From: Patescibacteria group bacterium
Lineage (GTDB): Bacteria > Patescibacteriota > JABMPQ01
Assembly (NCBI GenBank): GCA_018818965.1
Contig: JAHJQX010000024.1
Coordinates: 6,105 to 70,104, forward strand
Reading direction: 5' to 3'
Length of the DNA stretch: 64,000 nucleotides
Shown: piece after piece, positions 7,630-54,883 of the stretch
How positions within the stretch are numbered: position 1 is the first letter of the stretch
Layout of the letters: every line of letters starts with the position of its first letter
Translations under genes and position numbers: made by a program
Notes under the pieces: model-generated
What the model was told of the DNA's origin: nothing
The model's input: only the letters and a program-made list of their open reading frames with translations
The model's database searches: none

Positions 7630-7632
7630 CCC

Positions 7633-7854
7633 ATGGCCATCTCCTGGCGAGAACACTGTCGGATCGCAGCGGAGGAACGCCTGGATCCTCGTCGTGACTT
7701 CAGCGAAGTCCGGCGACGGGCTGCACTGCGGGCGGTGGCTAATCGCCCCCAACGACGTCCACCGGTGATGATTCCTCCACCGGTAACGGTCACCGCACCA
7801 ATCCGACGTCAGCTCCTTCTTCCCGGTATCTTCCGCACCCAACACCGCCTCTAG
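7633..7854 (+). CDS. Arg/Pro-rich small ORF (73 aa), possibly non-coding
   Basis: Open frame in GC-rich DNA, where chance ORFs are common. No recognisable domain. Confidence 0.12.
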   Translation: MAISWREHCRIAAEERLDPRRDFSEVRRRAALRAVANRPQRRPPVMIPPPVTVTAPIRRQLLLPGIFRTQHRL

Positions 7855-7936
7855 CAACTAAAGAGACGGTTTTTTTATACAAAAAACTGCCCAGGGCAAA
7901 ACAGAGCAGCTAACAATAAACTATTAAAGGATAGAT

Positions 7937-37438: not shown

Positions 37439-37445
37439 CTAGAAA

Positions 37446-38663: not shown

Positions 38664-38675
38664 TAATTTTAAATC

Positions 38676-39995: not shown

Positions 39996-40615
39996 AGCAG
40001 CTTCAACCCACTAAAAATCGATCGGCCGGTTTTACTATTCTCGAGATGATAATAGTATTTGGAGTTTTTGGGGTGGCTCTTGTTGTCACTACTTCCTACT
40101 TTTGGATGAGTCTGCGAGTGCAAAACAAAAGCGTTAAGCATATTGTGGCGCAAGACAATGCTCGACGAGCCCTGACTGCCATGGCCGGAGAAATCAGAAG
40201 TAATATGTACTCCGACGCTGGTTCTTATCCAATTGAAGTGGCCGAGGGGCAATCGCTTATTTTCTACACCAACATCGATGATGACGTTAACGCCGAAAGG
40301 GTGCGCTATTTTCTCGACGGCACTGACCTAAAACGAGGAGTGATTGAACCTTCGGGACAACCGCCAACCTATTCTAGTGTCAATGAACAAATCAATACCC
40401 TATCTAGTTACAACGCCAATGGGGTAAATGACATTTTTACCTATTATGATCGTGACTACGACGGGACAACTAGTCCCTTACCTTCCCCGGTAAATAAGAG
40501 TAAAATTAGATTGATCAAAATTAATCTTACCATTGACGTTGATAGCAATACCCCACCAGACCCGATCACTGTTACAACCGAAGCCCAACTTAGGAATTTA
40601 AAGGACAATCTATAA
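39992..40615 (+). CDS. Prepilin-type (pseudo)pilin
   Basis: …RSAG|FTILEMIIVFGVFGVALVV canonical G|FTxxE prepilin cleavage motif. 207 aa. Confidence 0.6.
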   Translation: MKQLQPTKNRSAGFTILEMIIVFGVFGVALVVTTSYFWMSLRVQNKSVKHIVAQDNARRALTAMAGEIRSNMYSDAGSYPIEVAEGQSLIFYTNIDDDVNAERVRYFLDGTDLKRGVIEPSGQPPTYSSVNEQINTLSSYNANGVNDIFTYYDRDYDGTTSPLPSPVNKSKIRLIKINLTIDVDSNTPPDPITVTTEAQLRNLKDNL

Positions 40616-40620
40616 ACAAT

Positions 40621-42015
40621 ATGGTACGGCAACCTACTAAAACACAAACCGGTGGCATTCTGGTACTAGTAATAGTATTTTGCGCTGTCTTCATGGCTAT
40701 CGGCGTTTCCCTGATCCAGATTATGTCACTATTACATAAAGCTTCTTTGAAAAAACAAAATCTAGAACAAGCTTTTCAGGTTGCCGAGGCAGGTATAAAT
40801 TTCTACAAATGGCGATTGGCACACGAACCAGAAAATTATAGTGGGGGCGGCGCTGACTACGACTACTATAATATCGACGGCAATAAAATAGGGTACTATC
40901 ATTTAGAAATTGGCGAGCCACCTTTGGGTTCGACGGTGGTGACTGTTACTTCGACCGGATATACCGACAGTGACCCCAACCTCTCTCGTACTCTAGAAGC
41001 CCGTTTAGCTGTCCCCTCCCTCTCTGACTACGCTTTTTTGACCAACAGTAACGCCTGGATTGGTGAAAGTGAAGAAATAGTAGGAAGAATGCACTCTAAC
41101 GGGGGAGTGCGTTTTGACGGTGAATCTGATTCAACTGTAGATAGCCCACTCGAAACGTATATTTGTGGAACAGAGCATGGTTGTAATAACGAAGAGCACG
41201 TGGGAGTCTGGGGTACAGGGGAAATTCAAGAATTATGGCGTTTTCCTCCTACCCATCCTATTAACTCTATTGACTTCAACCAAATAATACTTGACCTGGC
41301 TGATATGAAAGCAGAAGCACAAGCTGACGGTACCTACTTAGGAGACTCTGGTGAATTTGGTTGGCATCTTGAATTCGACTATAATTCTTCTACTTTCAAA
41401 GCCTCAAAGGTGACTCAGGTACACCAGACTTATGGCTGGGACTTTACTGATGGTTGGCAGTGGCGCAATATTGATATCAAATCAGAAACGACAGCCCAAC
41501 AATATAATTTGCCGGCTAACGGTATTATATTTGTGGAAGACCAGGCCTGGGTAGACGGGGAAATTGACCAAAGGCTGACTGTGGCTTCCGCTAATTTCAC
41601 TGATCCAAACGTGGAAACTAGTATTATCATTAATGATGATATAGTCTACGACAATAAAGACGGTAGCTCAGCTATGGGATTGATTGCCCAAAAAGACATC
41701 CTAGTCCCCTTATACAGTCCCGAGAAACTAGAAGTAGACGCCGCTCTATTGGCCCAAGGTGGTCATTGTTTTCGTTACTATTACCCCGAGAGCTGGTACG
41801 GCCAAGATGCTAAGAAAGATCTAATCGAAATTTGGGGAAGTGTTATTACTAATACCATCTGGACTTGGAGTTGGGTTGATTGTGATACTTGTCCAGTAAC
41901 ATCTGGCTATATTGATACCGAAACAACCTATGATCCCTATTTAACTTACGGACCGCCACCGGAGTTCCCTACCAGTGGGGAATATGAGCTTGTTACTTGG
42001 CAGGAAGTAAAATAA
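40621..42015 (+). CDS. Pilus-associated hypothetical protein with N-terminal TM (PilX-like?)
   Basis: 464 aa. N-terminal GGILVLVIVFCAVFMAIG. Located within the pilus operon. No recognised domain. Confidence 0.35.
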   Translation: MVRQPTKTQTGGILVLVIVFCAVFMAIGVSLIQIMSLLHKASLKKQNLEQAFQVAEAGINFYKWRLAHEPENYSGGGADYDYYNIDGNKIGYYHLEIGEPPLGSTVVTVTSTGYTDSDPNLSRTLEARLAVPSLSDYAFLTNSNAWIGESEEIVGRMHSNGGVRFDGESDSTVDSPLETYICGTEHGCNNEEHVGVWGTGEIQELWRFPPTHPINSIDFNQIILDLADMKAEAQADGTYLGDSGEFGWHLEFDYNSSTFKASKVTQVHQTYGWDFTDGWQWRNIDIKSETTAQQYNLPANGIIFVEDQAWVDGEIDQRLTVASANFTDPNVETSIIINDDIVYDNKDGSSAMGLIAQKDILVPLYSPEKLEVDAALLAQGGHCFRYYYPESWYGQDAKKDLIEIWGSVITNTIWTWSWVDCDTCPVTSGYIDTETTYDPYLTYGPPPEFPTSGEYELVTWQEVK

Positions 42016-42018
42016 CCT

Positions 42019-43101
42019 ATGTTCAATCCATTTAATAAAAGTAAAAAGGCCTTCGGCTTAGAAATAAGTGACTTTTCTTTAAAAGCTCTCTGGTTCAATC
42101 AAAAGAGACAAGGTTTAACTGTGGCCGGATACAACCGCTTGGATCTACCCAAAGGCTTGGTAGTAGAAGGAGAAATTAAAAAAAGTGACGAAGTGGCTAA
42201 TTTACTGCAACAGTTAGTAGAAGAAGCTAAGCCGCAAAAAATAGCTATTCCCCGCGTTATTAGCTCTCTGCCGGAAAATAAAACTTTCGTGCGCATTATC
42301 GAAATTCCTAAAATGACTCAGCAAGAAATATCGGAGGCAGTCCGATGGGAAGCTGAACACCATATTCCTCTGTCAATCAGTGATGTTTATTTAGACTGGC
42401 AAATATTATCAGAAAAAGATAGCAAAATAAAGTTACTACTAGCTGCTGCTGATAAGAAATTAGTAGAAGGATACGTGGACACCCTGGAGAAAGCCAAGCT
42501 TAGTCCACAAGCCTTGGAATTAGAGGCAGCTGCTGAGGGACGAACCTTGATCAAAGAGAATGAAACTACTAAACAGACTTATCTTATTGTTGATATCGGG
42601 GCAACCAAAACAATGTTTAGTATCTTATCATCTGAGGTAATCTACTTTAGCTCTAGTATCACTAAAGTATCAGGGAACTTTTTCACTAAAACAATTGCTG
42701 ATTGCCTCAACGCCAAAAAAGAAGAGGCGGAAAAAACTAAAGTTGCTTGTTGTAGCCCCCAAATATCTGAGAAAGAGCAAGCTGTCCTCGACGCTATTCA
42801 TCCCGCCTTTGATGAGTTGGCTAAAGAAATAGAAAAAATAGAACATTATTTTTTCTACAACTTTGACCAGACTAGTGATAAAATAAATGTTATTTTATGC
42901 GGTGGCGGAGCTGGACTTTTTGGAATTGCCCCTTATCTTTCTTTGAAACTCAAACAAAAAGTACGGCTAGGTGATCCTTGGCTTAATGTTCCCCTAACTG
43001 AACATCCCCCGTTAGCTCTAGCTCAGGCTTTGGGCTATACACAAGTAATTGGTTTAGCTCTACGCGGAATTAGACCAAATGAGTATACGACTCAATTATA
43101 G
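42019..43101 (+). CDS. pilM: Type IV pilus assembly protein PilM (actin-like ATPase fold)
   Basis: 360 aa. The N-terminal FGLEIS…LKAL start and the DIGATKT phosphate-binding-like loop are typical of PilM. Confidence 0.7.
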   Translation: MFNPFNKSKKAFGLEISDFSLKALWFNQKRQGLTVAGYNRLDLPKGLVVEGEIKKSDEVANLLQQLVEEAKPQKIAIPRVISSLPENKTFVRIIEIPKMTQQEISEAVRWEAEHHIPLSISDVYLDWQILSEKDSKIKLLLAAADKKLVEGYVDTLEKAKLSPQALELEAAAEGRTLIKENETTKQTYLIVDIGATKTMFSILSSEVIYFSSSITKVSGNFFTKTIADCLNAKKEEAEKTKVACCSPQISEKEQAVLDAIHPAFDELAKEIEKIEHYFFYNFDQTSDKINVILCGGGAGLFGIAPYLSLKLKQKVRLGDPWLNVPLTEHPPLALAQALGYTQVIGLALRGIRPNEYTTQL

Positions 43102-43104
43102 ACT

Positions 43105-43665
43105 ATGATTACTATTAATCTCTTACCAAAAAGATTCAAAAGGAGGGCGGATATAGAAAGAATTAACCTATCTATCGTCGCTATGTTAATCTTGCTTTTT
43201 GTTATTGTTGGTTTGACTATCGAATTATTATTTGCCACTAAAAAATTCCTTAATGCTAATATTGAAACTTTAGAAAGTCAGCAACAGGCCTATGAAGATT
43301 TCTTTACTTCTGATGTCAATAAAGACATCAACGATAAAATAGTAAAAACTAATCAACTAGCTATCCAAGTAGGTAAAATACAGGCCGGCCGAACCAGCTG
43401 GTCAGAACTATTGACTGAATTAGCTATCGTCACCCCTCCCGAAATAAAGCTAACCGATATTCAAAGTAATATACTGAATAAATCTATCACCATCTCAGGA
43501 AGAGCAGAAACTCGTGACCGACTTTTAGACTACAGTAAAAGTTTAGAAAGCTCCGATTATTTTGCTAGTGTAGACTTGCCTTCCTCCTACCTTAGCAGTC
43601 CGACTGATATTTCCTTTGAAATAAAAGCAAATCTGTCTCTAGCTACATCATCAGCTGGAGATTAA
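43105..43665 (+). CDS. pilN: Type IV pilus assembly protein PilN
   Basis: Canonical PilN start INLLP followed by a TM. 186 aa. Position after pilM. Confidence 0.6.
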   Translation: MITINLLPKRFKRRADIERINLSIVAMLILLFVIVGLTIELLFATKKFLNANIETLESQQQAYEDFFTSDVNKDINDKIVKTNQLAIQVGKIQAGRTSWSELLTELAIVTPPEIKLTDIQSNILNKSITISGRAETRDRLLDYSKSLESSDYFASVDLPSSYLSSPTDISFEIKANLSLATSSAGD

Positions 43666-43672
43666 CAAAGTT

Positions 43673-44296
43673 ATGAAACTCACCAAACAAAAAATATATA
43701 TTGCGGTTGTGGTTATCGTTGTTGCTTTGATAGCGATAACTGCTTTTCTAGCAGTGCCCCTGGTGCAAGATATTTATTCTCTGACCGCTGATCTCCAACA
43801 AAATAGAAACGAACTGGCAGCAGCTGAGGCCAAAGGAAAAAATCTTAAACAGATCAAAGACAACCAGCAGGTAACAGAGACTAACTCCAAAAAACTGGAT
43901 CAAACACTGATTTCTCGTGATAATACCCTCGATCTTATCTTGCCAATTGAAAAAATTGCTAGTAAAAATAACGTCGAGCAAAAAATTGATATTGTGAATG
44001 TGGATCCCGATGAGGGGAAAAAGAGTAACAGCCAGAAAGAGGAGGAAACCAACTATGCCCTAAAGGACATTCCTTACTTGTCGATCAACATCAGCCTAAA
44101 AGGAGAATTTAAAAACATCGCTTCCTATATTCTGGACCTGGAAAGTATCGGGGTGTATACCGACATTACCAACATCACCATCAGCGCTCCTAAAGCCACT
44201 TCCAGTACCTCTAATAAACCAACGGCTGAAGACGGGAATGCCACTGATGGCCGACTGAATGTCGGTTTACAATTACGAGCTTTTACTAGTGAATAG
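43673..44296 (+). CDS. pilO: PilO-like bitopic protein
   Basis: N-terminal TM and coiled coil. Position after pilN. Confidence 0.45.
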   Translation: MKLTKQKIYIAVVVIVVALIAITAFLAVPLVQDIYSLTADLQQNRNELAAAEAKGKNLKQIKDNQQVTETNSKKLDQTLISRDNTLDLILPIEKIASKNNVEQKIDIVNVDPDEGKKSNSQKEEETNYALKDIPYLSINISLKGEFKNIASYILDLESIGVYTDITNITISAPKATSSTSNKPTAEDGNATDGRLNVGLQLRAFTSE

Positions 44297-44305
44297 AATA
44301 TTTAT

Positions 44306-44605
44306 ATGAAACTAAGAGTAGACCAACTGCGTCAATTAAAAAAAGAAATGGTCCCATACTTGAAGGGGCATGTCGAACAAGTGGTTATAGCCAGTATTTT
44401 AATTATAGTTGTTATCGGAGCAACCTACAGTTCGTTGCTTTTTTACCGCTTTGCTTTAAGTTCCAAAACAACAACCACCGAAGTCGCTACTAAGATAATA
44501 AAGGTGCGAGTGGAAGAAGAAACCCTACAAAAAATTGATGCTGATAAAAAAATTGATCAAGTCTTACAAGAAAAGCTGGAAAAGGCCAGGGATCCTTTCA
44601 AATAA
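44306..44605 (+). CDS. Small bitopic membrane protein (PilP-like position)
   Basis: 99 aa with one TM. Last gene before the terminator. Confidence 0.3.
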   Translation: MKLRVDQLRQLKKEMVPYLKGHVEQVVIASILIIVVIGATYSSLLFYRFALSSKTTTTEVATKIIKVRVEEETLQKIDADKKIDQVLQEKLEKARDPFK

Positions 44606-44625
44606 ACGACTGATCTATAAACAAA

Positions 44626-44659
44626 AACTACCGGACATACATCGGCCGGTAGTTTTTTA
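44626..44659. terminator. Bidirectional terminator between the pilus operon (+) and the convergent minus-strand operon
   Basis: AACTACCGG…CCGGTAGTT stem, tttttt downstream, A-run upstream. Confidence 0.5.
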
Positions 44660-44699: not shown

Positions 44700-46562
44700 T
44701 TAGTGATCACTATCTTTGCTATAGCCAAAACCGCGCCAGAGCATTTTTTTGTCTTGAGAAGAAAATGAGAACAAGAAGGTGTCAAATGATTCTAGATAAC
44801 TTCGTTGAGTTGCGTTCAACTTTAGATAGTCAGTTAAATCATCAACATCAAAATAAAATATATTTTCGCTGCGCCAGCTAGCAGCTTCGCCGTAAGAAAG
44901 ACTGAAATGCCTTTTGTTAACCAGCAGCTTTCCAGATGTTTTAGAATCGCTAGCTATTAGTAATTTCTTTAAAGATTCAAGTGAAGTGCTGGCTAGTAAC
45001 TTATCTCCTAAGATAATATAGGAAATATTATCACTTAGGCTCTCGCTAGTGACACTCCGTACCGTCATACCTGCAAAATCCATGTCAGCGAACTGAAAAG
45101 CCTCTTTATTGGGTAACAGCTCCTGAGCTTTACTACCATCAGAAAGAATAATCTCCTGAGTGACAGGATAAACTGAACCCAAATAATTAGCTACCGCTTC
45201 CTCAACTACTGCCATCTGGGTTTTTACTTGTTCCCCATTTTTAAGTTGAAAAACAAAATCGTAATTAGTCTGACCGTCGCTGTGATCGAGAGCAATCAAA
45301 TACTCATCGTCGAGATACTTTAACAAATCATCTTGTAAATTAAGGCGAGACTTCTCTTCGATGTTGCGCTGGAAATTATTAAGGTGGAATTCCACCGTTG
45401 GACTTTTTTCCGTTAGATCTTGTTTGAATTCCGTTAAATCACCACTGAAATCGTTGCCTGTGATAAATCCAGAAATATCAGTAGGCAAATAATTGATTAA
45501 TTTTTGGGAAATTCTCTGGCCAGTATGACTATCTTGACGTTGAGCTGTTATATCAAGCAATAAGCCTCCTTCTTTGGCTTCCATGGTAACTAGGGCATCT
45601 TGTACATCAGCCAACATCAGCTCCCACAACACTGACATATTATTAGTTGAAGGAATATGGGCTGATAATTGAGTTGGTTGTAAGTAAAGATACAAAAACT
45701 TCTCTCGCAAGGTTAAAGGATTAAAATTAGGTAGATTAGTTGATTGCGCCAGAGTGATATATTCCTGTTGGTTAGTTTTAATAACTGCCTGGAGATGACT
45801 TTGGCTCTGACTGATAATCAAGTAGTCATCGAGAAATAAGCAATGGACTAGTAAGCTACCGTCCTGGCTATTAATACTAATAATTTCCTCTCCTTGGAAA
45901 TCCTGGCGAGTAATCTCAGTTCGATAACCGATTTTTCGCAAAGCGTTTTCAGCTGCTGGCTTGTCAAACAAATCAACAATAAACACCCAGTTTTCGGTAG
46001 TAACTACTTCCCCGTTTTCGTCATCATTATCGCCGCTAGCAGGGAAATAACTAAAATAAAGATTGCGACCGAGAAATGGCTTAAGGTCGGTAGCAAACTT
46101 GACGCCTAGCGGCTCCATTTGTTGGTCAATAAAACTAGTGCCCTTCCTAATTACAGTGTCGTGTTGCTTGGCCAAATCAGCTAGAGGTTTATTTTTCTGC
46201 TCATCAGGGAAAAGAATACCGGCGATGTTAATTTGTCCATAAATCAAAGCATCATTCGGTACTAGAGCAGCGGCAGTACTCTGGACAGCAAAAAGTTGCC
46301 AATAGAGAAGGCTGCCGATAACCACTAAGCCCAACACCCCAACCAAAACAGCTAGCAATCCTTTGTAAAAATTATACGCTACCGATCTCCCTCTTTTTTT
46401 CTCTTCCTTAATCTTCACAACATTTTTAGCAGGCAAGGAGCGCCACCGACTAGAACGATTGCGAATATCATTAACCTGAGGCCCGGATTTAGTCAAATCT
46501 TCCTGACTTTTCTTCTTGCGACTATGCCCAACTGTAATTTTAATTTTTTTCTTTCTGCTCAT
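44700..46562 (-). CDS. Large membrane-anchored hypothetical protein (620 aa), paralog of the upstream gene
   Basis: Basic N-terminus, single TM (LLAVLVGVLGLVVIGSLLYW), large extracytoplasmic region. Same architecture as 46566..48242. Confidence 0.5.
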   Translation of the reverse strand: MSRKKKIKITVGHSRKKKSQEDLTKSGPQVNDIRNRSSRWRSLPAKNVVKIKEEKKRGRSVAYNFYKGLLAVLVGVLGLVVIGSLLYWQLFAVQSTAAALVPNDALIYGQINIAGILFPDEQKNKPLADLAKQHDTVIRKGTSFIDQQMEPLGVKFATDLKPFLGRNLYFSYFPASGDNDDENGEVVTTENWVFIVDLFDKPAAENALRKIGYRTEITRQDFQGEEIISINSQDGSLLVHCLFLDDYLIISQSQSHLQAVIKTNQQEYITLAQSTNLPNFNPLTLREKFLYLYLQPTQLSAHIPSTNNMSVLWELMLADVQDALVTMEAKEGGLLLDITAQRQDSHTGQRISQKLINYLPTDISGFITGNDFSGDLTEFKQDLTEKSPTVEFHLNNFQRNIEEKSRLNLQDDLLKYLDDEYLIALDHSDGQTNYDFVFQLKNGEQVKTQMAVVEEAVANYLGSVYPVTQEIILSDGSKAQELLPNKEAFQFADMDFAGMTVRSVTSESLSDNISYIILGDKLLASTSLESLKKLLIASDSKTSGKLLVNKRHFSLSYGEAASWRSENIFYFDVDDLTDYLKLNATQRSYLESFDTFLFSFSSQDKKMLWRGFGYSKDSDH

Positions 46563-46565
46563 AAA

Positions 46566-48242
46566 TTAATCTTCTTTAACTGATAGGAAGCCTTCGGCCC
46601 AGCCGCCTTCATTAGAGCTTTGGCTCAAGAATCCCACTCCCCGTAGTCGTCGATACTCATCCTGGAGCGTATCATATTCTAAATAGTTGAAGTTATCCAA
46701 CCAGGTGAGAGAGTGAGGCAAATTAAGATACACTAAACGGGTAGCTTTCTCAGAATTAATTTCCTGATAAGTGTTGCGGAAAATTTCATTTTCAGCTAGG
46801 ACATCTCTCGTCGTACCCTCAGCAGCGTCAACCAAACTACCGAAAGCTTTCGGACCAGTAGCTATAATTATTTTATCTGTTAATACAGCGTAGTAGATAT
46901 CAACTTTAATGCTGGCTGGCAACTTGGCCAAGCGATAGGGCACATTTTTGTATGTTTGGTCAATAAACCCTACTTGTCCTTCGCCCTCCTTGACTATTTT
47001 ATCATTAATCTCTCGAACCGCCAATTCTTCAAGTTTCTTCATTTTGTCTTCGGCCTCTTCTCTCTTCTCTCTCGCCAATATTAGTCCAGCTGACAATCCT
47101 TTCTCTTCTTTTTCCGGGAAAATAGCAAGTCCATAACGCCCCTCTAGCATAGTAAAAATATCTTTGTCTAAATCTAAGCCAAGCTGCAAAGATATCCCCT
47201 TCTTAAGTAGCTCAATCTTAGCTTCACGTTCTTCCTGACTAAGCCCTTCCTCTGAGCTTACCAATAGACGCTCGGCTAGAGATTGAATCTCTTGCCCTTC
47301 CCAATAAAAGGCGGTGTTGGCCGGGACACTGTTCGCCAGATCAGGTTTGAAATCTTTCTTCTTTTCATACGATTCATTATCTCCGCCCAACAAGGTAGTC
47401 ATCTGTATCCCATTGTCCCGAGCCTTAAATACAATACCCATATTAAAACGACTGTCACTGGAAATCTGCCCCAAGAAAGGGATATTTATCTGGTCACTAA
47501 GCTCGGTAACTTCTCGTAGGCTTTCTACCAGATCAACAAAGGCAAAAACAGTAAAATCATCACCTTTCAGTTTTCTTTTTATGCGCCGGTAGACTCGGTC
47601 AGAGGACAAAGACTTATTGCGCCCGATGACCGTATCAATCATCATTTTAATGCCAGCGGGATCTTCTGAAAATAGCAAGAAATTCTCATAAAAAGCATAA
47701 GCCATACCCTCTTGGCTACTTTCAATATAAACAATTTCCGTCCCTCGAAATTCTTCGGTACTGACTACACTGCCTCGCTTTTTGACATTCTCATTGATAG
47801 TACCGAGAATATCTTTGGCTTTAACCAAGTTCTTAATTTCAACAACGTGAGCTGATTTATTTTCACGGCTGCTCAATTTTACCTTACTGATAACTAACTT
47901 CTCCCCTAGCCATGATTTCAGATCGCCTTCTTCAATTTTTAAGTTGTCTTTGGAGATGCCTCGGAAAAATTGTCCTTCGATGTAACGCTTGAATATTTCC
48001 TCATCGCCTAAATTAATTGCTAGTTTATCCAAAGCGTTGTTTTGCTCAGAATTTGGGTTGATATCTATCAGCAAGAAGGTAATCGGGTTCTCAGGGATAA
48101 AATTTTCCGGCTTAAGACGTCGAAAAAATTTATAATAAGATATTAGACCCACCACCAACAAAACTGCCACCGTCATTATACCTAAACGCAGCCAGAATTT
48201 CTTCTTCTTCCTTTTTATTTCATTTCTACGGCGTTGAGACAT
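46566..48242 (-). CDS. Large membrane-anchored hypothetical protein (558 aa), paralog of the downstream gene
   Basis: Basic N-terminus (RRRNEIKRKKKK), TM (IMTVAVLLVVGLISYY), large extracytoplasmic region. Confidence 0.5.
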   Translation of the reverse strand: MSQRRRNEIKRKKKKFWLRLGIMTVAVLLVVGLISYYKFFRRLKPENFIPENPITFLLIDINPNSEQNNALDKLAINLGDEEIFKRYIEGQFFRGISKDNLKIEEGDLKSWLGEKLVISKVKLSSRENKSAHVVEIKNLVKAKDILGTINENVKKRGSVVSTEEFRGTEIVYIESSQEGMAYAFYENFLLFSEDPAGIKMMIDTVIGRNKSLSSDRVYRRIKRKLKGDDFTVFAFVDLVESLREVTELSDQINIPFLGQISSDSRFNMGIVFKARDNGIQMTTLLGGDNESYEKKKDFKPDLANSVPANTAFYWEGQEIQSLAERLLVSSEEGLSQEEREAKIELLKKGISLQLGLDLDKDIFTMLEGRYGLAIFPEKEEKGLSAGLILAREKREEAEDKMKKLEELAVREINDKIVKEGEGQVGFIDQTYKNVPYRLAKLPASIKVDIYYAVLTDKIIIATGPKAFGSLVDAAEGTTRDVLAENEIFRNTYQEINSEKATRLVYLNLPHSLTWLDNFNYLEYDTLQDEYRRLRGVGFLSQSSNEGGWAEGFLSVKED

Positions 48243-48253
48243 AACGCACGATT

Positions 48254-50335
48254 TTATTTATCAATCAGCGCTAAATTTATCCGACCCATCTCATCAATCT
48301 CAATCACTTTAACTTTCACGGTATCTCCCATTTTCACCACATCTTCAACTTTATTAACTCGTTGTTTGGACAATTTTGAGATATGAATCATACCATCTGT
48401 GCCTGGGAAAATCTCGACGAAAGCACCAAAATCCATGATGCGAACTACCTTACCAGTATACTCTTCGCCTAATTCAGCTTCTTTAGTTAGATCATCAACC
48501 CAAGTTCGAGCTTCCTGCATCTTCTTTTCGTCGACTGAGGTAATAGTCACTGAACCATCATCCTCAATATCAATTTCTACCCCCGTTTTATCAATGATCG
48601 CATTGATCATTTTACCACCAGGACCAATTACATCCCGTATTTTCTCCGGATTTATTTTGAAAGTAACTATTCTAGGGGCATATTCTGATAATTCCGGTCG
48701 GGGCTTATCAATTACCTTATTCATTGCCTCTAGTAATTCCAGACGAGCCTTCTTGGCCTGAGCAAAGGTATCAGCTACCATATCATCGGTTAAGCCATGC
48801 GTTTTAGTATCCATCTGAACAGCTGTGATACCATCTGTGGTACCGGCAACCTTAAAGTCCATGCCACCTACAGTATCTTCTAAGTCTTGCAGGTCAGTCA
48901 AAATCTTATAATCACCGTTACCATTTTGCACCAGACCCATCGCTATACCAGCCACAGCTTTCTTGATCGGCACGCCAGCGTCCATCAAAGCTAAAGAAGA
49001 TCCACAAGTAGAGGCCATTGAAGAAGAACCATTAGAACCTAATACTTCCGATACCAAGCGAATAGTATAAGGAAAATCTTCCTTATCGGGGACAACTGCC
49101 TCGAGAGCCTTCTCGGCTAGAGCACCATGTCCGATATCACGTCGGGAAGGACCACGCAGCGGCTGCACTTCGCCAACGCTGAAAGGAGGAAAATTATAGT
49201 GATGCATAAAGCGTTTTTTGTATTCCTCTTCCATGCCGTCAATTATCTGCTCTTTGCCAGGAGATCCTAGAGTGGTTATGGTTAAGACCTGTGTCTCACC
49301 CCGCATGAAATAACCTGAACCATGAACGCGTGGTAAGGCACCAGCTTCAATATCCAAGGTTCTGATTTCGTCCATTTTACGACCGCCGATTCTTTTTTCA
49401 TCCTTAAAAACACCTTCGCTAATAAGCCGCTCTAGAGTAGCAAAATAGGTATTTTTGATATTAATTTTTTGCTCCTCACCAAACTCCTCAATTAGCTGTG
49501 CCACAATCTCATCGCCCAAATTATAAATAATTTTCTTTCGCTCAGTCTTTTGCTCAGTGAACAAAATGTCGTTTAGCTTAGCTGAAGCTAACTCCTCCAC
49601 CTTTTGTTTAAGCTTCTCGTCAATTTCGGGAGCTGGCAGGTCTTTTTTCTCTTTGCCGATTTCTTTTTGCGCTTTGGCAATCAAGTCAATTACCTTCTTG
49701 ACGTGTTTTTTACCAAATTCGACAGCCGTTAAAAATGTCTCTTCGTCTGCTTCCTTGGCGCCAGCTTCTACCATGATTACTTTTCCCTCTCCGGTAACAG
49801 CTAGAATAAGGTCTATGATTGATTTCTGACGCGCTGCGAAGGTAGGATTTAATACCAATTCACCATCAACCTGTCCAACCCTGACTGCGGCCATTATCTG
49901 AGAAAAAGGGATGTCAGAGATAGTTAAAGCGCAGCTAGCAGCGATTAAAGCCGGAATGTCAGGATCGTTCTCCTCGTCAAAAGACAGGACATCAACAATG
50001 ACCTGAATATCGTTTCTAATGTGTTGCGGGAACAGAGGTCGCAGAGCACGATCAATTACCCGCGAACTGATGACTGCCTCATCGGATGGACGGCCTTCTT
50101 TTTTGATAAAACGAGAGCCTTTGATTTTGCCTGCGGCGTAGAGTTTTTCTTCATAATCAACCATTAGGGGGAAATAATCCACTTCGCCCCGAACATCATC
50201 GCTCATGACGACTGTTGCCAGTACTTTAGTATCACCATATTGGACGGTGACCGATCCATTGGTCTGCTGAGCATAACGCCCGCTGCCAATAACTAGTTTC
50301 TTTCCTCCAACTTCTGCCTCAAATGTTTTCTCCAT
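48254..50335 (-). CDS. pnp: Polynucleotide phosphorylase
   Basis: 693 aa. Two RNase PH domains, KH (…IGPGGKMINAII…) and a C-terminal S1 domain. Confidence 0.9.
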   Translation of the reverse strand: MEKTFEAEVGGKKLVIGSGRYAQQTNGSVTVQYGDTKVLATVVMSDDVRGEVDYFPLMVDYEEKLYAAGKIKGSRFIKKEGRPSDEAVISSRVIDRALRPLFPQHIRNDIQVIVDVLSFDEENDPDIPALIAASCALTISDIPFSQIMAAVRVGQVDGELVLNPTFAARQKSIIDLILAVTGEGKVIMVEAGAKEADEETFLTAVEFGKKHVKKVIDLIAKAQKEIGKEKKDLPAPEIDEKLKQKVEELASAKLNDILFTEQKTERKKIIYNLGDEIVAQLIEEFGEEQKINIKNTYFATLERLISEGVFKDEKRIGGRKMDEIRTLDIEAGALPRVHGSGYFMRGETQVLTITTLGSPGKEQIIDGMEEEYKKRFMHHYNFPPFSVGEVQPLRGPSRRDIGHGALAEKALEAVVPDKEDFPYTIRLVSEVLGSNGSSSMASTCGSSLALMDAGVPIKKAVAGIAMGLVQNGNGDYKILTDLQDLEDTVGGMDFKVAGTTDGITAVQMDTKTHGLTDDMVADTFAQAKKARLELLEAMNKVIDKPRPELSEYAPRIVTFKINPEKIRDVIGPGGKMINAIIDKTGVEIDIEDDGSVTITSVDEKKMQEARTWVDDLTKEAELGEEYTGKVVRIMDFGAFVEIFPGTDGMIHISKLSKQRVNKVEDVVKMGDTVKVKVIEIDEMGRINLALIDK

Positions 50336-50368
50336 GAGAAATTTTTCCTTTCTTGTCCCAGGAGAAAG

Positions 50369-50388
50369 CGGATATCAAGGAATAGCGG
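50369..50388 (-). promoter_or_regulatory. Hairpin in the pnp 5' leader
   Basis: GAAATATC-ggct-GATATTTC perfect 8-bp stem, 33 nt upstream of the pnp start. Confidence 0.3.
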
Positions 50389-50454
50389 GAAATATCGGCT
50401 GATATTTCACAGTAACCCATGATATACTCAATTTTCCTGGAACTGAATTATCAA

Positions 50455-50967
50455 TTAACTTATTAAGAACTTCTTATCCTTCTCCAAATCAATAAAATCA
50501 TCGGCTTCTTCGATTAACTTGGAAGAAGCACTTTTTTTAAAAGCTACCAACTCTACTTTACAACTCATCGCTCTCTTTAAATGCTGCACCAGCGGAATAA
50601 AGTCACCATCACCAGAAACTATTACGACCGTATCAAGCTTAGGGGCAAATTCGATTGTGTCCATCGCGATTCCGATGTCCCAATCACCTTTTTTCGCTCC
50701 ACCATAGAATATCTGGAGATCTTTAGCTCTCACTTCATAGCCAAATTTTTCTAGAGCGCCGAAAAAGTCCTTTTCTTTCGCAAAAACGTCAGTCTTAATC
50801 ACATAGGCCACGGCTCGAATTAATTTTCGATCAGCTACTGCTGCTTGTAAGACTTCCTTAAAATTTACTTTCTTTTTATAAAGCGCCCGAGCTGAATAAT
50901 ATAGATTCTGGACATCCACAAACACTCCGATACGCTGCTCTTTATGCTTTGAAGCTATCTGCGACAT
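50455..50967 (-). CDS. NYN-domain (LabA-like, PIN-fold) putative RNase
   Basis: 170 aa. Motifs GVFVDVQNLYYSA, VSGDGDF. Inserted between rpsO and pnp. Confidence 0.7.
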   Translation of the reverse strand: MSQIASKHKEQRIGVFVDVQNLYYSARALYKKKVNFKEVLQAAVADRKLIRAVAYVIKTDVFAKEKDFFGALEKFGYEVRAKDLQIFYGGAKKGDWDIGIAMDTIEFAPKLDTVVIVSGDGDFIPLVQHLKRAMSCKVELVAFKKSASSKLIEEADDFIDLEKDKKFLIS

Positions 50968-50974
50968 ATAATGC

Positions 50975-51241
50975 TTATTTCTTCAACCCTAATTTCTTAA
51001 TTAATTTCTCATATCTCTTTTCATCTTCTCGCTTGAGATAACTGAGTAGTTTCCGCCGCTGATTAACTTTACCTAGTAGGCCACGGCGAGAAGACTCGTC
51101 TTTCTTGTGCTTCTTAAGATGTTTAGCCAGATAATCAATTTCCGCACTGAGAATGGCAATTTGCACCTCTGGCGACCCCGTATCGCCTTTCTTAGTAGCG
51201 TATTTGACGATCAGATTGTCTTTTTTCTTTTTAGTCAGCAT
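50975..51241 (-). CDS. rpsO: 30S ribosomal protein S15
   Basis: 88 aa with S15 signature (…[30 protein letters not shown]…). Confidence 0.85.
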
Positions 51242-51397
51242 GTTTTTTCGTCCGCGATTTTCCAGTATCCAGTAGAAACAGAAAATAGCCGTTAACTACT
51301 CGGCTAAACCAGAAAATCGTAGTTATTTAATATCTAACATCTGCCTGTCAACAGATAGGCTAGTCTATACTAGCACACTAGTTGGATTTAGCAAGGG

Positions 51398-51426
51398 TTG
51401 TCGCTACTGACGATGTGTCGTACAAT
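51398..51426 (+). promoter_or_regulatory. Promoter candidate for xerD
   Basis: TTGTCG, 17 nt spacer, TACAAT. Confidence 0.3.
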
Positions 51427-51496: not shown

Positions 51497-52444
51497 ATGC
51501 CCCAAAAGGCTAACAACCAGATTAATTCCCTCCTCACCGAATTCCTCGAGTACTGCGAGATTGAAAAAAACCACAGCCAAAAAACGATTAAGAATTACGA
51601 TCATTATCTGTGTCGTTTTTTAATTTGGGCGGAAATCAATGAGCCGGAACAAATCACTCTCGATTTGATTAGAAAATATCGCATTTATCTCAATCGCCTG
51701 CAAGACGATAAAGGTAATAATCTCAAGAAAATCACTCAAAGTTATCACATCATTGCTATTCGTGCCTTCTTGAAGTACCTAGCCAAGCGTGATATCAAAA
51801 CCTTAGCCTCGGAAAAAATTGAGTTGCCCAAAATTCCAGAGAGAACCGTAGACTTTCTCGATGAATCCGAACTTGAAAGATTACTAGCGACCCCTGACAC
51901 TTCTGACGCCAGAGGCCTACGCGACAAATCTATCCTGGAGCTACTTTTCAGCACCGGTATGCGTATTTCTGAGCTGGTGTCCGTCAATTGCAATCAGATC
52001 GGAGCTAATAAAGACGAACTCACCATTCGCGGGAAAGGCGACAAACCACGCGTGGTTTTTATTTCCCCGGCAGCGAAAAAATGGATTGAGCTATACCTCA
52101 AAAAACGACACGATAACTGCCCGGCACTTTTTATCAACTATCCGCGCGGCCAGACTAAGAAAGAAGATCCCAGCAACCCTGACTTTCGCCGCCTCACTCC
52201 ACGCAGCATCCAGAGAATTATTAGTAAATACGCCAAGCTGGCCGGAATAACTAAAAAAGTGACACCTCATGTCCTGCGTCACTCGATGGCGACTGATTTA
52301 CTGTCCTCCGGGGCTGACATTCGTTCGGTTCAGGCCATGCTCGGCCATAGCAACATCTCCACTACCCAAATTTACACTCACGTGACGGATAAGGGACTTA
52401 AAGAAGTACACCGGGCGTTCCATGGGAAACAAAGGAAGGGTTAA
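51497..52444 (+). CDS. xerD: Tyrosine recombinase XerC/XerD family
   Basis: 315 aa. Catalytic R…HxLRH…Y: LRHSMATDLL, GHSNISTTQIYTH. Confidence 0.8.
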   Translation: MPQKANNQINSLLTEFLEYCEIEKNHSQKTIKNYDHYLCRFLIWAEINEPEQITLDLIRKYRIYLNRLQDDKGNNLKKITQSYHIIAIRAFLKYLAKRDIKTLASEKIELPKIPERTVDFLDESELERLLATPDTSDARGLRDKSILELLFSTGMRISELVSVNCNQIGANKDELTIRGKGDKPRVVFISPAAKKWIELYLKKRHDNCPALFINYPRGQTKKEDPSNPDFRRLTPRSIQRIISKYAKLAGITKKVTPHVLRHSMATDLLSSGADIRSVQAMLGHSNISTTQIYTHVTDKGLKEVHRAFHGKQRKG

Positions 52445-52519
52445 CATTTCTTCCCTAAAAATATACACTAAGTAAATCCCTGGAAAAAAGAACGAACCTT
52501 TCACATACAAGGAGGCGAC

Positions 52520-53446
52520 ATGCCTTTTCTTCTACTCAATGGGAGAAAACCTAGATGGTTGGGCGATCTCATGAGGCTCGCCCAGAAACACGGTTGTGAA
52601 TGCTGTACAACCGGATCGGAGTATAGAATAGCGGAGGCTCTGACAGGTCTCGCCGGAAATGGCGATGGTTTCGCTGGCATACTGGGGGGAGATGGCAGTA
52701 TACAGCAATACCTGACGGCTGCCCTACGACGAAACCTGGCAGCCGAACTCACTGTCGCTCCTCTGGGTGGAGGAACGATGGAACAGCTCCTCAACTGGTT
52801 GGGTTGGAAAGGCACCCCACCACAAATCGCCAGTCAAGTCATTCAAGCTCACCAGTGGGGTAAACTGCGTACCCGAGAAGTTCCTCTGCTGCAAGTTGAG
52901 CATGATGGCAAAGTCCACTACGGATTTATGTTTTTGGTGGGTCCATTGGTTCGCCTGCTCAACAAATATGACCGGGAGGGAAGAAGCGTTTGGCGGGCTT
53001 GTGCCACTGCTGGCTGGTCATCTCTGGCAGCCCTTACCGGGTGGCCAAGAAGATATCAGCGGCTAATCCACCCTGCCCAGACAGAAATCACCCTCGATGG
53101 TCATCCGCGGGACAACTTTAAAAGTCCAACAATCGTCATCGCTTCCATGTTCGACCGCATGGTCTTTCGCTTCCGGCCTTTTTTGCCCGCAGGCGATAGT
53201 CCAGAGTCTGGTAAATTCTTCACCATACTCTCAGACCTGTCACCTTTTGAGATTGTGGCCAGGATCCCCCTCTTTCATCAAGGGCGCGTCCCCGAAAGCT
53301 TGCATCTCCTAAATCATCCGGGCAGTAGATTGACTGTAAAGACTGCTGAGAAATTCTGCACTGTCGACGGCGAGCTCATCCCGATCAAGCCTGGTGAGCC
53401 AATCACCATCACGATCGGTCCAACTGTCAAACTGGTTGTTCCTTGA
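52520..53446 (+). CDS. Diacylglycerol-kinase-catalytic-domain (DAGK_cat / YegS-like) lipid kinase family protein, GC-rich
   Basis: GGDGS motif (ILGGDGSIQQYL) and downstream DGE. Strong SD AAGGAGG. Local GC content is visibly higher than in neighbouring genes. Confidence 0.55.
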   Translation: MPFLLLNGRKPRWLGDLMRLAQKHGCECCTTGSEYRIAEALTGLAGNGDGFAGILGGDGSIQQYLTAALRRNLAAELTVAPLGGGTMEQLLNWLGWKGTPPQIASQVIQAHQWGKLRTREVPLLQVEHDGKVHYGFMFLVGPLVRLLNKYDREGRSVWRACATAGWSSLAALTGWPRRYQRLIHPAQTEITLDGHPRDNFKSPTIVIASMFDRMVFRFRPFLPAGDSPESGKFFTILSDLSPFEIVARIPLFHQGRVPESLHLLNHPGSRLTVKTAEKFCTVDGELIPIKPGEPITITIGPTVKLVVP

Positions 53447-53456
53447 TCAACACCGA

Positions 53457-53488
53457 GACTGTCCCCCTCCGGATAGTCTTTTTTTTTA
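53457..53488 (+). terminator. Rho-independent terminator
   Basis: GACTGTCC-cccctc-GGATAGTC followed by T9. Confidence 0.5.
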
Positions 53489-53570
53489 TTAAAGAGGATC
53501 CCTAAACCCCTTGCGTCTTTCCCTAAACCACGCTAAGGTATTTTTACTGATCAATTTAATTTTCATCATT

Positions 53571-53879
53571 ATGCCAATCACTAAAGCCGCTAAAAAAGCG
53601 TTGAGACAATCGAAAAAACGCCAACAGTGCAATATTAGAATCAAAAACCGGATCAAAACAATCACCCGTCAGGTGAATGATTTGATTAAGGCCGGTAAGA
53701 AAGTAGAAGCAGAGAAGGCTTTGCAAAAAGCATATTCAGCCCTAGACAAAGCAACCAAAAAGAAAAAGATTAAGAAAAATACCGCGGCGCGGCGCAAGTC
53801 ACGACTAGCCAGCGCAGTAAATAAAGCGGGAGGTAAAAAAAAGCAAACTAAAACTACCACCCCAAAGACCAAAAAATAA
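53571..53879 (+). CDS. rpsT: 30S ribosomal protein S20
   Basis: MPITKAAKKALRQSKKRQQ… is a typical S20 start. The ORF-track start at 53511 is likely too early. Confidence 0.8.
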   Translation: MPITKAAKKALRQSKKRQQCNIRIKNRIKTITRQVNDLIKAGKKVEAEKALQKAYSALDKATKKKKIKKNTAARRKSRLASAVNKAGGKKKQTKTTTPKTKK

Positions 53880-53935
53880 TACTTATATTAAAAAACAGCT
53901 TGGCCATAGGCTGTTTTTTGTTTTCACTCACCTTT

Positions 53936-54883
53936 CTAACCACACAACCCCACTACTAATAAATCCAGGCCCAACTGCGGCTCAATTTTACTGGTTTTAA
54001 TCGCCTCGTCCAAATCTAGCAGCTTACGATAAATCATCTTTAATCCGGCTGAACTATAATTACTCGCCTGCTGAGCTGTTTTCTGAGCAACGAACGGATG
54101 CATCTTCGCTTCTTTGGCTATACTGCGTTGGTTACTACCATTTTCTAGCAATTCTTTAACAATCAACAGATTACGAAATTGATAAGTAATCATGCTGAGT
54201 AAATAAAGGGCATGTTCACCGGATGACAATTGATCATGCAGCAATTTCAAAGCGTTCTCTCTATCCTTGCGTCCCAAAGCGTCCACAAAATTAAAAATAT
54301 TAGTATCTAACTTAGCTTTTACTAACTCATCAATATCTTCCGCCGTAATTTCAACGCCTTTCTTATAAGTAACCAACTTGTCTATTTCCTGCGCCATCTG
54401 CCAGAGATCATTGCCGACATAGGCGGCTAATTTACTAGCTGTATCGGCAGCAATCTTACCACCTCGGCTAACAACTTCAGCAGCAATCCATTTATTCAAG
54501 GCTTGGCCAATTAACAATGTAACTTCCTCCGCCTGACCCTGTTTAGCTAGTAATTTAAATAATTTAGCCCGTTTGTCTGGCACGCCCGCTTCCCAAAAAA
54601 CTACCACTGAGCTCTCCGGCAAACCCTGACTAAGTAAATCGGCAATCCCTGCCAAGAGACTTTTATTTTTCCCACCCAGAATATTCTCGACTATAATTAG
54701 CCTCTTCTCACCCATAAAAGGCGTTGCCTGGACAGCATTTTTCAGTTCGGCCAACTCTACCTGTCTACCATCCAGCTCCTGTAAATTAATGCCGGAAGAA
54801 TCCTTAGCTAGGAAGTTGGCTTTAAGTTTATTTAGTTTTTGACGCGAACGATAATTGTCCTCGCCGTAGAGAAAGATAAGCAT
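53936..54883 (-). CDS. holA: DNA polymerase III delta subunit
   Basis: 315 aa. N-terminal RFC-like fold without a Walker A; the helical C-terminal domain is typical of HolA. Confidence 0.7.
   Translation of the reverse strand: MLIFLYGEDNYRSRQKLNKLKANFLAKDSSGINLQELDGRQVELAELKNAVQATPFMGEKRLIIVENILGGKNKSLLAGIADLLSQGLPESSVVVFWEAGVPDKRAKLFKLLAKQGQAEEVTLLIGQALNKWIAAEVVSRGGKIAADTASKLAAYVGNDLWQMAQEIDKLVTYKKGVEITAEDIDELVKAKLDTNIFNFVDALGRKDRENALKLLHDQLSSGEHALYLLSMITYQFRNLLIVKELLENGSNQRSIAKEAKMHPFVAQKTAQQASNYSSAGLKMIYRKLLDLDEAIKTSKIEPQLGLDLLVVGLCG

Follow-up and report, generated by a model that had tools for sequence, protein, structure and literature searches.

A putative Parcubacteria-type rpsO-pnp operon with a predicted NYN ribonuclease gene and two DUF3352 membrane protein genes

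In a 64,000-nucleotide stretch of DNA from an ultra-small Patescibacteria organism (the window), we find five co-oriented genes that we interpret as the form which the bacterial rpsO-pnp operon takes in Parcubacteria-type CPR/Patescibacteria, and we hold this explanation, taken as a whole, to be slightly better than an even bet (about 0.55). Judged from sequence, the locus would be a housekeeping operon typical of its lineage, and it would contribute a new candidate for a core endoribonuclease, an NYN-family protein encoded between rpsO and pnp. Two membrane proteins of the DUF3352 family follow pnp, and we read their tie to the RNA genes as one of shared transcription only.

An ORF check places rpsO, NYN, pnp, DUF3352-A and DUF3352-B in this order on the minus strand, with successive spacings of 7, 119, 11 and 3 nt. 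The tight operon proposed in the initial annotation is real. The features of the locus are the following.

51242..51420, minus strand: rpsO upstream region (putative promoter and 5' leader, edges uncertain); a stem-loop directly precedes the rpsO start
50975..51241, minus strand: rpsO, ribosomal protein S15, 88 aa (PF00312, 5e-32; TIGR00952, 112.7 bits, cutoff 63.65)
50455..50967, minus strand: NYN, 170 aa, predicted metal-dependent ribonuclease (LabA/COG1432-type, PIN-like, stand-alone; PF01936, 6e-35)
50336..50454, minus strand: pnp leader, 119 nt, with an irregular stem-loop at 50355-50443; a perfect 8-bp hairpin at 50389-50408 forms its apex
48254..50335, minus strand: pnp, polynucleotide phosphorylase, 693 aa (NF008805, 930 bits, cutoff 471; TIGR03591, 928 bits)
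46566..48242, minus strand: DUF3352-A, 558 aa, bitopic membrane protein (PF11832, 5e-37)
44700..46562, minus strand: DUF3352-B, 620 aa, paralog of A (PF11832, 6e-31)
44623..44658, no strand assigned: bidirectional intrinsic-terminator-like hairpin, AAAAACTACCGG / 11-nt loop / CCGGTAGTTTTT, read from the letters

A profile scan finds two RNase_PH domains, PNPase, KH and S1 in the pnp product. The terminator-like hairpin lies between the DUF3352-B stop and a convergent pil operon and is absent from the list of a simple terminator scanner; we infer that it may act as a bidirectional terminator closing the operon. At the other end, the sequence upstream of rpsO (51236-51420, minus strand) folds with an MFE of -49.4 kcal/mol (z -2.68, 1 of 200 shuffles as stable), and an Rfam search gives no S15-leader match to the region, which could serve as a promoter or an S15 autoregulatory site.

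The initial annotation had placed a PIN-fold NYN/LabA-like gene inside the rpsO-pnp pair. In concordance with this, PF01936 covers the protein end to end (1-145/145) in a Pfam scan, and PDB 2QIP (VPA0982) is matched with an E of 1e-30. In an alignment of 144 homologs, 45 of them syntenic CPR and 99 archaeal-type, residues D18, N21, D97, D103, D112, D120 and D122 are invariant and D95 is kept in 96-99%, showing that the PIN/NYN acidic active site is intact at the level of aligned residues. The window protein shares approximately 70% identity with the NYNs of DPANN archaea, to which it is closer than to other CPR copies, indicating that the family moves horizontally. No PNPase context was found for these archaeal orthologs, whose neighbourhoods are mixed (malic enzyme, Lit, DNA polB), some lying close to NOG1 or to genes for ribosomal proteins. 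None of the LabA/COG1432-type NYN proteins has a known biochemical activity, and earlier neighbourhood analyses connected NYN genes of bacteria with the processing of tRNA and rRNA (PMC5499597).

We followed the arrangement across GTDB species genomes with a pnp-anchored scan. Rather than the adjacent rpsO and pnp lacking NYN that the initial annotation had named as evidence against its claim, relatives keep the gene between the two in 43 of 53 species-level loci, indicating that the arrangement does not arise by chance. Nearly all of the 43 belong to Parcubacteria-type Patescibacteria of several candidate phyla; in the same scan, NYN is absent from rpsO-pnp in Microgenomates/Curtissbacteria and in non-CPR bacteria.

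A rather unlikely alternative, but one that deserves real weight, is that NYN partners S15 or the ribosome and not PNPase, as an endonuclease of rRNA/tRNA maturation or ribosome-associated quality control with a Rae1/YacP-like logic, and that it adjoins pnp only because rpsO does. The rpsO/NYN junction, 7 nt in the window, is an overlap or shorter than 20 nt in many lineages, while NYN and pnp usually have a structured leader of 100-300 nt between them. A NYN-anchored metagenome scan recovered 30 complete S15-NYN-PNP loci, and its broken trios keep NYN with rpsO in 6 of 6 cases and with pnp alone in none. The archaeal orthologs and the reported tRNA/rRNA-processing neighbourhoods also favour this alternative. 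However, a long non-coding leader tolerates insertions better than a 7-nt junction, so that NYN may stay with rpsO for mechanical and not functional reasons. The NYN/pnp gap is itself only 3-9 nt, without a leader, in several lineages, and the archaeal contexts are heterogeneous. Further decay nucleases also cluster at the locus: an RNase J gene lies directly upstream of rpsO in the relative L069, and a second NYN and an SNase are inserted between NYN and pnp in the relative L124.

Under the housekeeping-operon reading, NYN would be a free-standing Mg2+/Mn2+-dependent endoribonuclease for general RNA processing and turnover, translated together with S15, and its cuts would create unprotected 3' ends for PNPase to act on. 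We propose that the activity itself would not need PNPase, since close orthologs exist in archaea. Cooperation between NYN and PNPase is guilt by association, and broken trios never pair NYN with pnp alone.

The hairpin GAAAUAUC-AGCC-GAUAUUUC, described in the initial annotation as a perfect 8-bp element of the pnp leader, is confirmed, but forms only the tip of the longer stem-loop, which has about 33 pairs (MFE -36.4 kcal/mol, z -3.44, 0 of 200 shuffles as stable). An SD-like AAAGGA stands about 10 nt before the pnp ATG. Aligning the leader with those of relatives (four sequences) gives 29 consensus pairs, 12 of them with compensatory changes. Comparable long hairpins precede pnp in most CPR loci, and the pnp leaders are more structured than the remaining intergenic stretches in those loci (median z -4.59 vs -2.91, p 7e-4), about a third of which are also strongly structured. 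The E. coli pnp leader hairpin is cleaved by RNase III in PNPase autoregulation (PMC5029454); no resemblance to that leader was found by sequence or Rfam. By analogy, the stem-loop may be a processing or autoregulatory site of the E. coli kind, at which candidate RNase III double-strand cleavage would be followed by PNPase-dependent decay or repression. Such a leader would uncouple pnp dosage from rpsO-NYN.

The two large proteins after pnp had been described as possibly DUF3352-like paralogs, each with a poly-basic N-terminus, a single TM helix and a large external domain, and this description holds in every part. Besides their PF11832 matches, the two share 20% identity in a full-length alignment (BLASTP E 2e-5). 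Kyte-Doolittle windows give one hydrophobic segment in each, at about 15-40 in A, behind a 16-aa tail with 9 K/R, and at about 61-94 in B, behind a 62-aa tail with 21 K/R; each ectodomain has about 520 aa. The AF2 models reach a pLDDT of 89.9 (pTM 0.86) for A and 87.3 for B, in which residues 1-55 fall below 50 and the tail is disordered. Both models have TP0453 as best PDB match (A: 3K8J, E 3.7e-6, TM(target) 0.52; B: E 3.5e-4), a moderate resemblance with TM of 0.41-0.52 and approximately 10% identity. At the sequence level, no PDB relative of the DUF3352 profile was found. The N- and C-terminal halves of A match each other in hhalign (probability 99.7%, E 5e-26), and both ectodomains consist of a TP0453-like alpha/beta module in tandem duplicate. 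We suggest that the pair are envelope proteins on the outside of the membrane, whose probable task is to handle a lipid, a lipoprotein or some other hydrophobic ligand; alternatively, they would act as surface scaffolds. Their genes would ride on the pnp transcript, which would give growth-coupled expression in a compact genome, and the proteins would take no direct biochemical part in RNA metabolism.

A membrane protein is linked to pnp in more than one genome. The DUF3352 pair is conserved in L003, L069 and L074, and in many other CPR the gene directly after pnp encodes a different membrane protein, which is single-pass and has one DUF3352-like module; the shared module of about 120 aa is detected with an hhalign probability of 95-97%. 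This conserved position indicates that the linkage is not an accident of one genome. The post-pnp protein also bears an N-terminal cytoplasmic motif, PPPxEIxIRTMxxDL, in 21 of 21 cases and in no other ORF of the surveyed loci. Its retention together with this family-specific motif hints at more than accidental co-transcription.

It is improbable that the DUF3352 genes stand outside the rpsO-pnp transcription unit, read from a promoter of their own within the 3' end of pnp and kept by inherited synteny without regulatory meaning. A sigma-70-like TTGAGA-18-TAAATT (9/12; 48303-48274, minus strand) does lie just upstream of the A start, and gene order in small genomes may last by inertia. Yet the 24 promoter-like sites of the region compare with 15.6 +/- 4.2 in shuffles, and this one is among many weak matches, scored moreover by the E. 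coli consensus, from which CPR promoters may differ. No terminator was found between pnp and A, only 11 nt apart.

The surface-tethered RNA turnover or uptake suggested in the initial annotation is not supported. The idea, put as a membrane-tethered RNA-decay or RNA-uptake machine in which poly-basic tails hold RNA, PNPase or NYN like RNase Y/RNase E, is decidedly doubtful, and we include in this judgement the variant in which the ectodomains capture host nucleic acid. The conserved post-pnp module, the cytoplasmic motif, the lysine- and arginine-rich disordered tail of B and the short pnp/A and A/B gaps would all fit it. Nevertheless, a Pfam scan finds no nuclease or RNA-binding domain in A or B, whose fold resembles lipoprotein and lipid-handling proteins and not nucleic-acid binders. 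The tail of A is short enough to be consistent with the ordinary positive-inside rule, and the RTM motif is absent from both window proteins. Most of the DUF3352 mass is extracellular, while PNPase and NYN have no signal peptide. A DUF3352 gene from outside CPR adjoins lgt with no pnp nearby, and the Uhrbacteria downstream protein shows no detectable kinship to DUF3352 (probability 25%). The closest NYN relatives, those of archaea, likewise show no PNPase context.

That NYN is a selfish, toxin-like or anti-phage insertion landed by chance is close to refuted: PIN-like nucleases are frequent among toxins, the window copy is nearer to archaeal than to CPR genes and a PADLOC LabA-like NYN model matches (E 2e-15, partial), but this match is limited to the shared domain of a 310-position model, the slot is the same in all 43 genomes, the locus lacks an antitoxin, a partner gene and a defence-system context, and 25 columns invariant across 32 diverse members indicate strong purifying selection.

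Compared with E. coli rpsO-pnp, the window operon has the same gene pair and order and a long stem-loop in the untranslated leader just before pnp, and co-transcription of rpsO with pnp is likely here too. It differs in the 170-aa NYN gene added between rpsO and the leader, in the two envelope genes added after pnp and in that no rpsO terminator is seen.

Membrane-anchored organisers of RNA degradosomes are RNase Y in Firmicutes and RNase E in Proteobacteria. DUF3352 likewise is membrane-anchored and genetically associated with PNPase, but it has no KH, HD, S1 or catalytic domain and is mostly extracytoplasmic. Treponema pallidum TP0453 (PDB 3K8G-J) is a lipoprotein associated with the membrane; it has an alpha/beta/alpha fold and is related in structure to LprG/LppX, the lipid carriers of mycobacteria. 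It is the only confident PDB fold match for both paralogs and is likewise located in the envelope; one TP0453 chain (about 250 aa) spans one of the two DUF3352 modules, which are anchored by an N-terminal TM helix instead of a lipobox.

Rae1/YacP (NYN_YacP, PF05991) is a ribosome-dependent endoribonuclease of Bacillus subtilis encoded among translation-related genes. As a small stand-alone NYN-fold protein it may serve as a model for a role linked to the ribosome, but it belongs to another Pfam family, and a Pfam scan gives no PF05991 match in the window NYN. The LabA-like/COG1432 family, including Vibrio parahaemolyticus VPA0982 with its crystal structure 2QIP, shares size, full-length domain and acidic active-site residues with the window NYN. 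Its reported neighbours are SpoU, RNase T, Udg4 and TrmB, with rpsO-pnp not among them (PMC5499597). Here, in contrast, a core operon includes the gene as a fixed part across an entire bacterial radiation.

The five-gene minus-strand operon described in the initial annotation, with its small gaps and its 119-nt pnp leader, was reproduced in our ORF list with exactly the same coordinates. In window positions, the genes and the hairpin that follows them are:

50975-51241, minus strand: rpsO (S15), 88 aa; TIGR00952, 112.7 bits (cutoff 63.65)
50455-50967, minus strand: NYN protein gene, 170 aa; PF01936, 6e-35, full-length
48254-50335, minus strand: pnp (PNPase), 693 aa; NF008805, 929.9 bits (cutoff 471)
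46566-48242, minus strand: DUF3352-A, first of two paralogous membrane-anchored proteins, 558 aa; PF11832, 5e-37
44700-46562, minus strand: DUF3352-B, the second paralog, 620 aa; PF11832, 6e-31
44623-44658, past the last operon stop codon: hairpin with a 12-bp stem between A and T runs

Read from rpsO, the gaps between the five co-oriented genes measure 7, 119, 11 and 3 nt, and the genes are presumably co-transcribed. S15 passes the bacterial equivalog cutoff, and PNPase presents the expected architecture of Pfam domains: RNase_PH (two stretches), RNase_PH_C, PNPase, KH_1 and S1. A type IV pilus cluster on the plus strand (including PilM_2, PilN and a PilO-sized ORF, 35705-44605) converges on the operon, and the hairpin at 44623-44658 can serve as a possible bidirectional terminator common to the operon and this convergent pilM/N/O operon. 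The source organism belongs to the Parcubacteria group within the Patescibacteria, also called Candidate Phyla Radiation (CPR); its closest genome match is JABMPQ010000065, and two public contigs carry the same locus.

Directly 5' of the rpsO start lies a stem-loop without an Rfam match (51242-51345, minus strand; region fold z -2.68), which could be an S15 autoregulatory element. Local GC content rises at 6001-8000 (0.56) and at 52001-54000 (0.48) compared with ~0.42 elsewhere, and at 5936-7141 and 52501-53446 several long ORFs of the two strands overlap; the gene at 52520-53446 has only a weak DAGK_cat match. The two GC-bump regions may be foreign or unusual sequence.

A scan anchored on PNPase instead of NYN, which makes the absence of NYN visible, gave 59 species-representative loci; loci from other genomes and metagenomes carry L-numbers below, in their own coordinates. 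Among the 53 loci with rpsO just upstream of pnp, 43 carry NYN between the two genes, always co-oriented, under labels that include Uhrbacteria, Liptonbacteria, Wildermuthbacteria, Paceibacterota and Parcubacteria; NYN is missing from the remaining 10, which comprise Microgenomates/Curtissbacteria, a small number of further Patescibacteria and the hits outside the CPR (Acidimicrobiia, Phycisphaerales, Salinisphaerales). The initial annotation had placed NYN inside the rpsO-pnp pair and would have given up the point had relatives shown the two genes adjacent and NYN absent; since relatives keep the insertion, the claim stands. The converse metagenome scan, anchored on NYN, yielded 30 complete rpsO-NYN-pnp loci and 6 loci in which NYN is kept with rpsO and pnp is displaced by 2-4 kb or missing, while NYN adjoining pnp without rpsO was found in none. 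The locus is a variant of the known rpsO-pnp operon, and the variant itself is new; our literature searches turned up no account of an NYN gene lying between rpsO and pnp, and no paper tying NYN to the CPR, an apparent 'LabA' match (PMC9132574) being the author name Labadie.

Two comparison loci carry further nuclease genes. In a relative at 80% identity (L069), RNase J lies immediately 5' of rpsO (3680-5302), giving the gene order RNase J-rpsO-NYN-pnp-DUF3352-DUF3352. In the metagenomic locus L124, three genes stand between the rpsO-linked NYN and pnp (1577-4399), coding for an unknown 318-aa protein, another NYN-domain protein and a homolog of staphylococcal nuclease, and together these inserted genes are a small nuclease island.

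The NYN protein is of the LabA/COG1432 type; it matches PF01936 with 121.3 bits (gathering score 24.2), its residues 12-162 covering profile positions 1-145 of 145, and it matches the structural-genomics protein 2QIP (E 1e-30) with the active-site residues aligned. Across 45 syntenic CPR and 99 archaeal-type homologs, D18, N21, D97, D103, D112, D120 and D122 are invariant and D95 is conserved at 96-99%. Such invariance is what marks a PIN-like, metal-dependent nuclease that is active and kept so by purifying selection; for the NYN protein this activity is predicted from sequence, and its ribonuclease function and substrates are putative. The cutoff of TIGR00288, an archaeal NYN hypothetical equivalog, is not reached (23.6 versus 178.45 bits).

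The CPR represents a large share of bacterial diversity, and to our knowledge its RNA decay is essentially unstudied. A strongly conserved, predicted NYN nuclease with an intact active site, fixed in the RNA-decay operon that is the most conserved of all, is a concrete, clonable candidate for a missing core endoribonuclease. According to the published classification of PIN-like domains, nuclease activity has been assayed in no member of the LabA/COG1432 group, and the NYN neighbourhoods listed for this group include SpoU, RNase T, Udg4 and TrmB, with rpsO-pnp not among them (PMC5499597). For LabA-type NYN proteins, which are without a demonstrated biochemical function, the rpsO-pnp context supplies a testable one. 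A role of NYN in anti-phage defence or as a toxin is unlikely, because the PADLOC match is at domain level only (residues 57-163 against 192-297 in a model with 310 positions), the NYN neighbourhood contains no defence-system partner genes, and NYN is conserved.

Outside a small close clade, the best matches to the window NYN (66-75% identity) are annotated as Woesearchaeota, Nanoarchaeia and Methanocellales (loci L062, L065, L068, L073 and L079-L098). On those of their contigs that we inspected, the neighbouring genes are archaeal-type, among them thermosome, DNA polymerase B and NOG1, and NYN has neither S15 nor PNPase in its context; the NYN enzyme therefore cannot depend on PNPase. Identity to the window NYN is just 43-58% for the syntenic proteins from the rest of the CPR; window-clade members, which are 73-80% identical, are still found in rpsO-NYN-pnp. 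A split between the window clade plus the archaeal type and the other CPR was recovered in 74 of 100 neighbour-joining (NJ) bootstraps, and a grouping of all CPR NYN in 0%.

An identity of ~70% is far above the expectation for vertically inherited bacterial-archaeal orthologs and thus suggests horizontal exchange of the NYN gene between CPR and DPANN, two groups of ultra-small organisms. Neither NYN subgroup is monophyletic with support in the NJ tree and long-branch artefacts are likely; for this reason we do not read a direction of transfer from it, nor do we adopt in-situ displacement by an archaeal gene as a firm claim. Cultured Patescibacteria are described as parasitising methanogenic archaea (PMC10936435, PMC12281837), and such parasitism offers an ecological route for the exchange. 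Within the literature searched, a clade-wide inserted NYN gene, putatively encoding a nuclease and having archaeal-type relatives, is new.

Both proteins encoded after pnp score above the PF11832 gathering score of 26.8 (128.1 bits for DUF3352-A, 108.2 bits for DUF3352-B), in agreement with the family guessed in the initial annotation, and the match covers only profile positions ~5-399 of 536, the C-terminal parts of both paralogs diverging from the model. They align with each other from end to end (20% identity, E 2e-5), so that the paralogy proposed earlier holds and the possibility that they are unrelated does not. The expected topology, a poly-basic N-terminus, one TM segment and a large outer domain, is also borne out: a K/R-rich tail (9 K/R in 16 residues in A, 21 in 62 in B) precedes a single strongly hydrophobic segment, which is modelled as a long TM helix. 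Neither protein has a lipobox, which indicates TM-anchored proteins and not lipoproteins; ectodomain cysteines number 0 in A and 1 in B.

Word-indexed searches gave just 10-11 close relatives of DUF3352, and an exhaustive profile search was needed to recover the family, with 1119 representatives at E<=1e-3. No paper mentioning DUF3352 was returned by our literature search, and the PDB contains no sequence-level relative of the profile. The AF2 models are confident (pLDDT 89.9 and pTM 0.86 for A; 87.3 and 0.81 for B, in which residues 1-55 are disordered). They place two alpha/beta modules behind a long N-terminal helix, and the N- and C-halves are homologous through an internal duplication (hhalign probability 99.7%, E 5e-26). 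For both proteins the sole confident PDB match is Treponema pallidum TP0453, at E 3.7e-6 for A and 3.5e-4 for B and over one module each time; weak fold matches follow with mycobacterial TiME and LppA. TP0453, with an alpha/beta fold akin to that of the lipid carriers LprG and LppX, is likewise membrane-associated and may resemble one predicted DUF3352 module in fold (TM 0.41-0.52), but TP0453 is a lipoprotein whereas DUF3352-A and -B are anchored by a TM segment. Within the literature searched, this model of a TM anchor with two TP0453-like modules is the first fold-level description of DUF3352, and the pair presumably has an envelope and lipid-handling role.

Relatives as distant as 52% identity keep the tandem DUF3352 pair (L003, L069, L074), a single copy follows pnp in the more distant CPR L005, L006 and L015, and at another CPR-like locus DUF3352 lies ~3 kb from pnp on the opposite strand. 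In a non-CPR genome (L077/L078:6001-8618), with no pnp nearby, DUF3352 and the prolipoprotein diacylglyceryl transferase gene lgt lie tail to tail, which weakly hints that the family is connected with the envelope or with lipoproteins. In many CPR besides these, pnp is directly followed by a gene for a different-looking single-pass membrane protein of 320-370 or 800-1100 aa. PF11832 finds no match in the scanned examples of this protein; over its last ~120 residues it aligns with columns 355-480 of DUF3352 (hhalign probability 95-97%, E 1e-8 to 1e-10). The motif PPPxEIxIRTMxxDL (RTM motif), at the cytoplasmic extreme N-terminus, occurs in 21 of 1364 locus ORFs, and all 21 lie directly after pnp (for example L018:4128-6626, L021:10098-13118, L034:8134-9105 and L047:10308-11348); it is absent from DUF3352-A and -B of the window.

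Because the C-terminal DUF3352-like module recurs and the RTM motif is found solely at this position, a related membrane protein that evolves fast has persisted directly behind pnp across deep CPR divergence, which goes beyond the accident of a single genome. The conserved position of DUF3352 after pnp is new within the literature searched. For the post-pnp proteins of 340-415 aa in Uhrbacteria, the hhalign probability is just 25% and we do not claim a link to DUF3352. In several lineages of the CPR, the membrane gene linked to pnp is often followed closely by a gene for a DksA/TraR-type zinc finger of ~125 aa (L018:6635-7012, L024:12570-12944, L011:6900-7274, L054:6873-7214).

The most economical explanation of the linkage between pnp and the membrane proteins is a shared transcript, which would give growth-coupled expression of pnp and the membrane genes in a compact genome. 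We give about one chance in ten to a further reading, in which the operon encodes a membrane-organised, lineage-specific RNA degradosome of Parcubacteria-type CPR, the NYN component of which was exchanged with DPANN. NYN would then be the endoribonuclease that initiates decay in place of RNase E or RNase Y, PNPase would serve as the exonuclease, and the post-pnp membrane protein (DUF3352 here, RTM-motif relatives elsewhere) would anchor or regulate them via its conserved cytoplasmic tail. If this degradosome exists, NYN would be a core RNase shared by ultra-small episymbionts among the CPR and the DPANN archaea; a role of the membrane protein in organising RNA decay is improbable. The structural part of the interpretation in the initial annotation is retained, and its proposal of surface-tethered RNA turnover or uptake is not, since nothing in the DUF3352 data is suggestive of nucleic-acid binding or catalysis.

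The perfect 8-bp hairpin noted earlier in the pnp leader, the stretch between the NYN gene and pnp, was confirmed at 50389-50408, where it caps a longer irregular stem-loop at 50355-50443 (MFE -36.4 kcal/mol, z -3.44, no shuffle equally stable). Aligned with three relatives, the leader has 29 consensus pairs, 12 of them compensatory, in a set of four sequences with a weak consensus energy of -7.05 kcal/mol. A long hairpin just 5' of pnp (z -4 to -10) is present in most lineages whose leader is at least 60 nt; a few lineages have no leader between NYN and pnp. Compared with other intergenic regions of the same loci, pnp leaders are more stably folded (median z -4.59 versus -2.91, Mann-Whitney p 7e-4), with z below -4 in 71% of leaders versus 34% of controls. 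Within the literature searched, a recurrent structured pnp leader in the CPR is new. About one third of ordinary intergenic regions (90-330 nt, loci L003-L074) also have z < -4 against mononucleotide shuffles, and strong hairpins are thus generally common between genes in these CPR genomes.

A 35-codon uORF leader peptide, with its ATG in the leader and overlapping the pnp start, was rejected, as the 88%-identical relative L003 reads ACG in place of this ATG. On the plus strand inside the leader (50399-50428) a promoter-like sequence includes an extended -10 TG; it is a consensus match only, and its position recalls the E. coli antisense sRNA SraG.

In E. coli, cleavage by RNase III of a stem-loop in the pnp leader leads to PNPase-dependent decay and repression (PMC5029454). 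The window leader differs in being without an Rfam match; at the gathering threshold and at E<=1 alike, Rfam gave zero matches anywhere in the operon, the S15-leader and pnp-leader families included. The window leader resembles the E. coli leader in that a long double-stranded stem-loop stands just before pnp in the 5' UTR, and by analogy RNase III would cleave this stem-loop and so process the pnp leader, as it does in E. coli.
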